A stretch of DNA of 64,000 nt from a bacterium (lineage in GTDB: Bacteria; Patescibacteriota; Minisyncoccia; Phycocordibacterales; UBA2100): assembly GCA_030647655.1 (NCBI GenBank), contig JAUSJH010000009.1:82196-146195 (forward strand), in the 5' to 3' direction. The translations under genes were made by a program, and so were the position numbers. Positions within the stretch are counted from its first letter, which is position 1, and each line of letters begins with the position of its first letter. Positions 22,268 through 24,616 of the stretch are shown here, piece by piece. A model generated the notes under the pieces. It was not told the DNA's origin. It did no database searches and saw nothing but the letters and a program-made list of their open reading frames with translations.

Positions 22268-22633
22268 ATGAGCCATAATGCCCGCATGGTGAATTGGCGA
22301 GACATTCAGAAGAAGGCAGTAGGATTCCGAGATGCCAGAAACTGGAAACAGTTTCATAATCCGAAGGATATGGCGTTATCTCTCGTCTTGGAAGCGACTG
22401 AGGTCATGGAACACTTTCAATGGAAAAATGGCAAGGAGCTGGACAAGTATGTTCGTGAGCACAAAGGAGAGATTGCCGACGAACTCGCTGATGTTCTCTT
22501 TTGGATTGCAACAATGAGCAATGACCTGAAGATTGATCTATTTAAAGCATTTGAGGAGAAGATGAAAAAGAACGAAAAGAAATATCCTGTGAAAAAATCC
22601 AGAGGCAAACATACAAAATATACGGAGTTATGA
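22268..22633 (+). CDS. MazG-like nucleotide pyrophosphohydrolase (single-domain)
   Basis: ALSLVLEATEVMEHFQWK...EIADELADVLFWIATMSNDLKIDL is the MazG/NTP-PPase helical signature. The stop overlaps the next gene start (ATGA). Confidence 0.65.
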   Translation: MSHNARMVNWRDIQKKAVGFRDARNWKQFHNPKDMALSLVLEATEVMEHFQWKNGKELDKYVREHKGEIADELADVLFWIATMSNDLKIDLFKAFEEKMKKNEKKYPVKKSRGKHTKYTEL

Positions 22634-23358
22634 AATCGAAATCTTCCCCATACATACAAAGGGTAGAAGAGCACAAGAGTGTCGGCCATCGAGGGCGATT
22701 ACGGGAAAGATTTTTACAGGGCGGTCTCAATTCCTTTCTTGATTATGAGATTGTGGAATTGCTCCTGACCTTAGGAACTCCTCGAAAGGATTGTAAACCT
22801 ATGGCGAAGGAGGCTATCAAGAAATTTCGCGGATTACGGGCCGTACTTGACGCGTCTTTTGAAGAACTGCAAGAGGTAAAAGGTATTGGTCCCAGTAATG
22901 CATTTGGACTCAAACTATTTCAGGCAGTATCTGAGCGGCACGCCAAAGAACAAATATTCGAGAAGGTTATTCTCGATTCTCCTAAGGCCATATACAACTA
23001 TTTGCAAAAATCGATAGGCCGAGAAAAGAAAGAGAACTTTGTTTTGCTGTCTCTAGACACCCGTAACAATCTTATTAAAATCAGCAATATATCTGTGGGC
23101 ACACTTAATGCAAGCCTTGTCCATCCCAGAGAAGTATTCGAGCCTGCGATAAGAAATTCTGCTACTCAGGTTGTATTGGCGCATAATCACCCTGCCGGTA
23201 ATCCGGAACCAAGCGAAGAGGATGAGGTAGTTACGCGACAATTAGTTGATGCCGGTAAGATTTTGGGTATCCCTGTCATCGATCACGTAATAGTTGCGTC
23301 TAATTCTTATTTCAGCTTTGCTTCAAAATGCCCCGATATTTTTAGGCCAATCGTATGA
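22630..23358 (+). CDS. RadC-family JAB/MPN-domain protein
   Basis: N-terminal HhH (ELQEVKGIGPSNA) and a JAB motif VVLAHNHPAGNPEPSEED. 4-nt ATGA overlaps with both neighbouring genes. Confidence 0.8.
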   Translation: MKSKSSPYIQRVEEHKSVGHRGRLRERFLQGGLNSFLDYEIVELLLTLGTPRKDCKPMAKEAIKKFRGLRAVLDASFEELQEVKGIGPSNAFGLKLFQAVSERHAKEQIFEKVILDSPKAIYNYLQKSIGREKKENFVLLSLDTRNNLIKISNISVGTLNASLVHPREVFEPAIRNSATQVVLAHNHPAGNPEPSEEDEVVTRQLVDAGKILGIPVIDHVIVASNSYFSFASKCPDIFRPIV

Positions 23359-24476
23359 ATTTAGATGCTGTACTAAAAGCGAAGAATTTTTTCCGGTTTA
23401 CCGGACCGCCGGAACACTGGCTGACGGCAGTTAAATACATGACGTGGGGACTACAGAAGCATCATCTTAAGAGATGGCGGGATATCCAACCAGGTGACAT
23501 CTTTTTTATTCACAGTACAAGAGAATCCTTATTTCCCAATGCACAATCAGGAATCATCGGTCTTGGGGTAATTGGACCGAACCTGACACAAAAGCAGGGA
23601 CCCTTATGGCTTAAAGAGCTAATAGATAATTCTAATACTTGGCCTCTACTCATCCCGCTTTCAGAAATTTATCTCTTTAGTGAACTTCCCCCTATAGACA
23701 CTTGGGAAGCTCCAAACACAAAAAATCAGTCATTAACAAAGAATCTCATTGATACATTGATTGCCAATCGAATTCCCATACGGGAAGTCCCAGGCTTCCC
23801 GGCTATGGGCAGTTTTTCAAGTGTTAGCAGTAAGGTCTCGGACAGAATTTTGTCCGACAAACGCCCGCTTTATATATATACGGCTGGTGAAGTGGCAGAT
23901 ACTCCTCTCGAAGTTATCACCCTGAAAGAGAAAGATAACGACCAGCTTTTGGAAGTTAAAAATGCTGACGAGGCGTTGCGATATGCAGACACGCTCCAAA
24001 TATTTGACGTCGTTAAGGGTAGAACCATACGTGAACCAACCTCTGAATATATTCGCGATAATGAAACGCTCGAACGTGCAAATTCAGCCCACACAACTGT
24101 GCTACAACAATTGATACATTTATTTCGAAGCAGGGGATACGAGACCCGTTTCGGGCGTAAAACAATTGACCTTTTTGCTTACAACGAAAGAAAATCTTTT
24201 TTGTGCGAGGTTAAAAGTACAGAAAACAGAAATTTCAGGAGCCAAGCCCGGAAAGGAATTGCACAGCTATTTGAATACGAATACTTTGATGTTCAGAAAT
24301 TTACCGATGAAAATAAGTTGACGTTTACTGAGAAGCATAAATTAATAATACCTTCTCAGGTACCCGGTGACGAACGGTATGTAAATTTCATAAACAGTTT
24401 AACAATTGGTGTAGCAATGGTTGGACAGGAAAAATTACAACCCATAGGGAAAGATACGGGCTTCTCAAAGATATGA
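23355..24476 (+). CDS. EVE/PUA-like domain fused to PD-(D/E)xK nuclease domain; putative modification-dependent (type IV-like) restriction endonuclease
   Basis: N-terminus WGLQKHHLKRWRDIQPGDIFFIHSTRES...GIIGLGVIG is EVE/PUA-like. C-terminus ...RGYETRFGRKTIDLFAYNERKSFLCEVKST has D...E-x-K spacing. The region is AT-rich relative to its flanks. Confidence 0.55.
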   Translation: MNLDAVLKAKNFFRFTGPPEHWLTAVKYMTWGLQKHHLKRWRDIQPGDIFFIHSTRESLFPNAQSGIIGLGVIGPNLTQKQGPLWLKELIDNSNTWPLLIPLSEIYLFSELPPIDTWEAPNTKNQSLTKNLIDTLIANRIPIREVPGFPAMGSFSSVSSKVSDRILSDKRPLYIYTAGEVADTPLEVITLKEKDNDQLLEVKNADEALRYADTLQIFDVVKGRTIREPTSEYIRDNETLERANSAHTTVLQQLIHLFRSRGYETRFGRKTIDLFAYNERKSFLCEVKSTENRNFRSQARKGIAQLFEYEYFDVQKFTDENKLTFTEKHKLIIPSQVPGDERYVNFINSLTIGVAMVGQEKLQPIGKDTGFSKI

Positions 24477-24616
24477 TGAAGCTGATTCTCGACGTCTGTT
24501 ATGGCCCTCCTTCGCGCGAGGCTTCGGAAGGGCACAGCAAAAAGATTTTCAAATCCGAGCCCGAGCGGCTGGAGTTTTTGTTTGAAATGTATCAGAAGTT
24601 GACCGCACGCGAATAA
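24473..24616 (+). CDS. 47-aa micro-ORF translationally coupled to the nuclease gene
   Basis: ATGATG overlaps the upstream TGA stop. Encodes MMKLILDVCYGPPSREASEGHSKKIFKSEPERLEFLFEMYQKLTARE. Below the ORF-track size cut-off. Confidence 0.3.
   Translation: MMKLILDVCYGPPSREASEGHSKKIFKSEPERLEFLFEMYQKLTARE

Follow-up and report, generated by a model that had tools for sequence, protein, structure and literature searches.

The AT-rich block at positions 22,268 to 24,616 of the window, the 64,000-nucleotide stretch of bacterial DNA analysed here, is a horizontally mobile cassette whose constant unit consists of two genes, one encoding a DCTPP1-like MazG pyrophosphatase and the other (gene 3) a predicted fusion of a base-reading domain with a nuclease, and is not a four-gene system. 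We estimate at roughly 60% the probability that this is a mobile defence cassette in which the translationally coupled MazG and reader-nuclease combine modification-dependent (type IV) restriction of phage DNA with the clearing of modified dNTPs by MazG. Most likely, the cassette directs modification-dependent restriction at phage DNA, in a form not described before.

Table 1. Genes, predicted domains and catalytic codons of the cassette (positions in the window).
Feature	Positions	Strand	Basis or remark
Gene 1, DCTPP1/RS21-C6-type MazG-like all-alpha NTP pyrophosphatase, cassette leader gene	22268..22633	+	PF12643, PDB matches
Gene 2, full-length RadC: N-terminal helix-hairpin-helix and JAB/MPN metalloenzyme domain; optional accessory	22630..23358	+	NF000642, Pfam
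Gene 3, 373 aa, sensor-nuclease fusion, predicted modification-dependent endonuclease	23355..24476	+	AlphaFold model fold search
Gene 3 N-terminal domain, about residues 10-150, predicted PUA-superfamily (EVE/UPF0310/YTH-like) reader	23382..23804	+	
Gene 3 conserved helix, about residues 200-225 (EALRYADTL...)	23952..24029	+	Invariant residues
Gene 3 C-terminal domain, about residues 236-373, predicted PD-(D/E)xK nuclease	24060..24473	+	
Gene 3 predicted catalytic codons D272, E285 and K287	24168-24170, 24207-24209, 24213-24215	+	
47-aa micro-ORF	24473-24616	+	Not part of the system

A constant gene pair in a mobile cassette

All four open reading frames lie on the + strand at the coordinates of Table 1, and each consecutive pair is joined by an ATGA (22630-22633, 23355-23358 and 24473-24476), as a previous reading of this DNA made from the sequence only had described. 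Such overlaps are the commonest operon junction, and those found here are therefore unremarkable in themselves. The block has a GC content of 0.420 versus 0.535 for the remaining window, with sliding windows giving 0.38-0.44 within it and 0.52-0.59 in its flanks; the contrast reported by the sequence-only reading thus stands, its figure of about 58% for the flanks being slightly high. Horizontal acquisition, which that reading had proposed from composition, is borne out beyond this locus: of 43 related loci, 40 have a module with a higher AT content than the surrounding DNA, by a mean of 6.6 points, and whole cassettes have been swapped at a hotspot with syntenic flanks (L001 versus L059). The neighbours of the cassettes include Dcm, an HNH-type protein, PDC-S41 and toxin-antitoxin pairs (RelB/YafQ adjoining the cassette in the window; HicA, PIN or Zeta at other loci). 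As for signatures of integration, there is no tRNA within 2.9 kb of the block, no direct repeats bracket it, and no integrase ORF was noticed at the locus. The sole notable repeat, of 26 nt, has one copy at the gene-3 stop and another within yafQ, and does not bracket the island. A promoter scan of the block returned nothing exceeding shuffled expectation, the only strong site being one that serves relB. A phage origin of the cassette was also considered and found no support, since a search of IMG/VR contigs by peptide patterns only gave no viral relatives.

The pairing of gene 1 with gene 3 holds far beyond the window. Of 45 informative loci, 44 have MazG as the gene immediately 5' of the gene-3 homologue; they span CPR phyla, Omnitrophota, Aminicenantes, Elusimicrobia and Firestonebacteria, and in 24 of the 44 a 4-nt overlap joins the two reading frames. 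The best 120 gene-3 homologues share at least 52% identity and are patchily distributed across unrelated phyla. Neighbour clustering revealed only variable genes, with no fixed third partner, 3' of gene 3, and no conserved methyltransferase beside the module; none is present in the window block either, and the Dcm-like genes found in 4 of about 45 loci, at 60 to 3171 nt from the module, are not a conserved partner. The distance matrices of MazG and gene 3 are weakly correlated (r = 0.20, Spearman 0.006, Mantel 51/2000), and we do not use co-evolution measured in this way as support for the pairing.

The two remaining genes do not belong to this unit. RadC is an optional third component of the cassette: it adjoins the module in the window and in L004, L007, L009-L014 and L040. 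The gene-3 loci with an adjacent RadC make up only about a quarter, mostly of one clade and with RadC in varying position. It also occurs, in three different positions, in cassettes that join MazG to DUF2075 (L083, L086, L099 and L137). The micro-ORF has no homologue detectable by phmmer in any of the 47 related loci, its ATGA junction with gene 3 is unique to this window, and its only two relatives in a whole-database search are stand-alone mini-ORFs (55 and 62 aa) whose surroundings are unrelated; it was consequently rejected as a fourth component. The four-component system put forward by the sequence-only reading is thus not borne out: of the quartet whose co-occurrence was at issue, MazG and gene 3 are conserved together, RadC comes and goes, and the micro-ORF is absent from the related loci. 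The micro-ORF could be a 3' relic of an MmeI-type (type IIG) gene: below threshold, it matched positions 57-80 of 83 of PF20467, an MmeI-type C-terminal domain (E 3.4e-4, 21 bits, cutoff 27), and positions 885-910 of 912 of the PADLOC model REase_MTase_IIG (E 0.005). No methyltransferase remnant lies upstream, and neither a PDB search nor plasmid tblastn lent support to such an origin.

The sensor-nuclease and its pyrophosphatase leader

Annotation of gene 3 by sequence returned no match in Pfam, PADLOC, PHROGs or the PDB (phmmer), which made a fold search necessary. The AlphaFold model has a PUA/EVE/YTH fold followed by a PD-(D/E)xK fold, in agreement with the fusion that had been read from the letters. 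(i) The best structural match of the N-terminal domain is UPF0310/EVE and not YTH, and residues W31, W41, F50, H53, W85, W96, Y106 and F108 of this domain are invariant, candidates for an aromatic pocket that would accept a flipped modified base. (ii) For the C-terminal domain the fold search gave AF1548 (9.0), FokI (8.5) and NucS (8.0), with which Foldseek concurs; D272, E285 and K287 are conserved among the gene-3 homologues, leaving the PD-(D/E)xK core intact. (iii) Between the two lies a conserved helix in which 36 sequences share E206, R209 and L214 without exception; it has a pLDDT below 50, within an otherwise poorly modelled linker of about 60 residues (178-239), and may be an interface with a partner or with DNA, or the helix with which the nuclease core opens. 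Sequence models did not place gene 3 in the EVE family: Pfam, including EVE (PF01878), gave nothing at E <= 1, and the only matches were a sub-threshold one to NCBIfam PRK00809 (E 0.004, 16.8 bits, cutoff 139) and one of a gene-3 profile to UPF0310 in the PDB at E 0.05. On the evidence of the model, gene 3 is EVE-like by fold only and not by sequence membership.

As a specificity module the reader domain has been shuffled among proteins, and it recurs on HNH nucleases and McrB GTPases, which are contexts of type IV restriction. L048-L050 carry the same N-terminal domain joined to HNH, with MazG still upstream in two of the three; relatives join it to McrB-type AAA_5 GTPases that also bear MrcB_N or DpnI_C readers, to HNH and to NOV_C. 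In 20 sampled relatives the identified fusion partners (McrB, HNH, NOV_C) were all DNA-targeting, and HEPN, TIR or phosphoesterase fusions were absent. The domain adds a new, uncharacterised family of readers to the toolbox for detecting modified bases.

Gene 1 matches Pfam PF12643 at 5e-15 (56 bits, cutoff 27), confirming its MazG-like nature, and in the PDB it matches 4qgp at 9e-20 and mouse and human dCTP pyrophosphatase 1 at 4e-18. The homology with DCTPP1/RS21-C6 (2a3q, 6sqw, 7mu5) is full-length, includes the C-terminal G-x-x-x-KY-x-x-L tail and preserves the metal-binding motifs, whereas DCTPP1 is mammalian and gene 1 is bacterial, comprises the 115-aa core only and stands in an operon with nucleases. 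The metal-binding acids E36, E39, E42, E66 and D69 (A3 numbering) are invariant across 27 MazG homologues, and the E-x-x-E...E-x-x-D motif can be read in the window protein as LEATEVMEH...ELADV. The true start is probably the ATG at 22286, preferred because the resulting 115 aa is the length of nearly all homologues. A search at E <= 1e-10 gave at least 7972 proteins of this MazG clade, which is very abundant in CPR bacteria. Searches of PADLOC v2 (PADLOC-DB v2.0) HMMs with gene 1, gene 3 and P0279, at E <= 1 or E <= 0.001, gave no match. Gene 2 was also correctly recognised as RadC/JAB: it exceeds the cutoff of the RadC equivalog NF000642 over its full length (224.8 bits, cutoff 180), matches the RadC JAB domain PF04002 at 5e-45 and UPF0758_N at 3e-11, and carries the JAMM-type motif AHNHPAGNPEPSEEDE (HNHPAG...S..D).

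The sequence-only reading missed that MazG is not specific to gene 3: the closest relatives of gene 1 lead other cassettes, with DUF2075 (Nhi/PDC-S41-like) nuclease-helicases, with Mrr, and with a second family of sensor-nuclease fusions that end in HNH or PD-(D/E)xK domains. The closest homologue, P0286 (77% identity), lies directly 5' of an Mrr_N-Mrr_cat gene. Among 80 MazG loci, a set of the top matches to two peptide patterns and not a random sample, the commonest partner is a DUF2075 nuclease-helicase (38 of 61 loci). An orthologue of PDC-S41 (E 2e-284) lies directly 3' of gene 3 in L044, as do its homologues in L027, L043 and L045.

Proposed function and its competitors

The reader-nuclease fold of gene 3, the reuse of its sensor with HNH and McrB, the lack of a consistently linked methyltransferase and the foreign composition together make a type IV-like defence role the best reading, modification dependence being suggested by the modelled fold and the domain associations; EVE-PD(D/E)xK fusions had already been predicted as type IV enzymes (PMC7641849). 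The module of modification-dependent restriction or defence suspected from the sequence is to that extent sustained, the quartet as its vehicle being the part that is lost. The gene-3 reader would flip a modified base out of the incoming DNA and recognise it; the dCTP-pyrophosphatase-like partner points to a 5-substituted cytosine as the likeliest such base, and the PD-(D/E)xK domain would then cut the modified DNA. MazG probably hydrolyses modified dNTPs, and would act on the matching non-canonical one, for example 5-methyl- or 5-hydroxymethyl-dCTP; in human cells, levels of 5-methyl-dCTP are controlled by DCTPP1 (PMC4491611). This activity could starve phages that build modified genomes, and could also keep the host chromosome free of modified nucleotides recycled out of degraded foreign DNA, which would expose it to cutting by the cell's own nuclease.

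The same proteins could instead carry out abortive infection triggered by nucleotide sensing, like PUA-Cal-HAD: a modified mononucleotide set free during infection (such as m6-dAMP from degraded host DNA) would be bound by the PUA-like domain, the nuclease would be switched on, MazG would collapse the dNTP pools, and the cell would be sacrificed. There is precedent for both halves of this scheme, in that the PUA-like domain of PUA-Cal-HAD binds m6-dAMP and rare variants use a MazG-like effector (10.64898/2026.01.15.699771); a near-obligate MazG could serve here as the dNTP-depleting effector, and DUF2075 nuclease-helicases, which also occur with MazG, show no obvious reader of modified DNA. 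We nevertheless consider this unlikely, as no locus contains a HAD or calcineurin-CE partner and the reader is fused in its sampled relatives to DNA-targeting domains.

A toxin-antitoxin-like addiction module, with the nuclease as toxin and the upstream MazG as an antitoxin or regulator that either binds the nuclease directly or removes an activating nucleotide, would persist selfishly, with defence as a secondary effect. The order of a small upstream gene followed by a larger effector with a 4-nt overlap fits this scheme, as do the constant position of MazG 5' of very different nucleases and the mobility of cassettes that sit beside classical toxin-antitoxin pairs. Against it, the strong conservation of all the MazG catalytic residues argues for an enzymatic and not a purely inhibitory role, and no DNA-binding autoregulatory domain is present, so that we find an addiction module quite improbable. 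Two loci (L046 and L051) carry pseudogenised copies of gene 3 that retain an apparently intact MazG, an arrangement compatible with either an addiction or an enzymatic reading.

CPR bacteria depend on nucleotide salvage, and the abundance of the MazG clade in them, like the annotation of RadC as a DNA repair protein, could point to a housekeeping module of repair and salvage in small-genome bacteria, in which gene 3 would cut imported or damaged DNA with abnormal bases, MazG would clear abnormal dNTPs and RadC would assist. DCTPP1-type enzymes are nucleotide-pool sanitisers (PMC13510388). Such a role fits poorly, however, with a patchy distribution of closely related homologues across unrelated phyla, with foreign composition and the replacement of the cassette at one locus, with the swapping of nuclease domains and the fusion of the reader to McrB, or with neighbours that are toxin-antitoxin, restriction-modification and defence genes, and we give it little credence. 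An RNA-directed system, with the YTH/EVE-like domain as reader of a modified RNA base (such as m6A or m5C, in tRNA or phage transcripts) and the PD-(D/E)xK domain as ribonuclease, appears highly improbable given a deoxynucleotide-type pyrophosphatase as partner, repeated fusions of the reader to DNA-restriction modules such as McrB and HNH, and a top structural match to UPF0310/EVE and not to YTH.

Type IV-like restriction coupled to the hydrolysis of modified dNTPs may, in turn, be one case of something broader. We know of no requirement of the DUF2075 family for modified DNA; since this family is the commonest partner of MazG, the role of the latter may exceed removal of the dNTP cognate to the reader. 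We tentatively suggest, as a possibility to which we would not give even odds, that the DCTPP1-like MazG is a general, unrecognised second component of many nuclease defences (two families of PUA-reader nucleases, Mrr and the Nhi/PDC-S41-like proteins), coupling restriction of foreign DNA to the destruction of the invader's non-canonical dNTP precursors, serving also as a self-immunity factor that stops the host chromosome from incorporating modified nucleotides gained by salvage, and with RadC as a facultative third module.

Comparison with known systems

Type IV restriction enzymes are usually seen as stand-alone, while here a predicted reader-nuclease is near-obligately paired with a dCTP-pyrophosphatase-like enzyme, and among candidate-phyla bacteria and other uncultured lineages several unrelated nuclease cassettes begin with a member of the same pyrophosphatase clade. 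Restriction of nucleic acids and control of the nucleotide pool would be joined in one operon if MazG removes modified dNTPs, which would suggest how a cell could escape self-restriction after recycling modified foreign DNA; the pairing also provides a prokaryotic setting in which to view what mammalian DCTPP1 does. The MazG leader is, moreover, a genomic marker for further defence cassettes in CPR genomes, where defence is poorly charted.

The cassette resembles, and differs from, several described systems: (i) The only earlier mention of the pairing that we found in the literature concerns HNH genes beside MazG genes: the His-Me finger 'Group 23', a set of unannotated bacterial HNH proteins next to MazG-family genes that Jablonska et al. 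(2017) tied speculatively to MazEF regulation (PMC5714182). 'Group 23' probably corresponds to the HNH variants of L048, L049, L062 and L067, and that paper recognises neither a reader domain nor a role in restriction, nor the versions with PD-(D/E)xK. (ii) The EVE-PD(D/E)xK and EVE-HNH class of type IV enzymes was predicted by Bell, Wolf and Koonin in 2020 (PMC7641849), and the EVE-HNH enzymes VcaM4I and TspA15I have been characterised (PMC7897488, PMC6765204). By contrast, the gene-3 reader has no match to EVE sequence models, gene 3 is near-obligately preceded by a DCTPP1-like MazG, which neither paper mentions, and it differs in the conserved helix of its linker. (iii) PUA-Cal-HAD (bioRxiv 10.64898/2026.01.15.699771) likewise couples a PUA-like sensor to a nucleotide-hydrolysing enzyme, and its PUA family, like the gene-3 reader, is also fused to HNH and McrB. 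The window cassette, however, lacks both calcineurin-CE and HAD, no Metallophos or HAD domains being found in the window proteins or the called neighbours; the effector borne by its sensor is a predicted nuclease, and MazG is a separate upstream gene. (iv) Mrr genes can be preceded by a close MazG homologue (P0286), and the gene-3 reader recurs as a specificity module on the GTPases of McrBC; yet the gene-3 nuclease has no match to the Mrr_cat model, and gene 3 differs from both systems in being predicted to act as a single chain, independently of NTPase activity. (v) Nhi, AbiO and the PADLOC candidate PDC-S41 (DUF2075, SLFN-like) are proteins unrelated to gene 3, and have in common with its cassettes only the MazG leader and sometimes RadC. 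(vi) The nucleotide-depletion defences, dCTP deaminase and dGTPase, consist of one gene each and, on infection, exhaust the canonical dNTPs. They share with the role proposed for MazG the use of a dNTP-hydrolysing enzyme against phage replication, whereas MazG always comes with a nuclease and looks more like an enzyme that sanitises non-canonical dNTPs.

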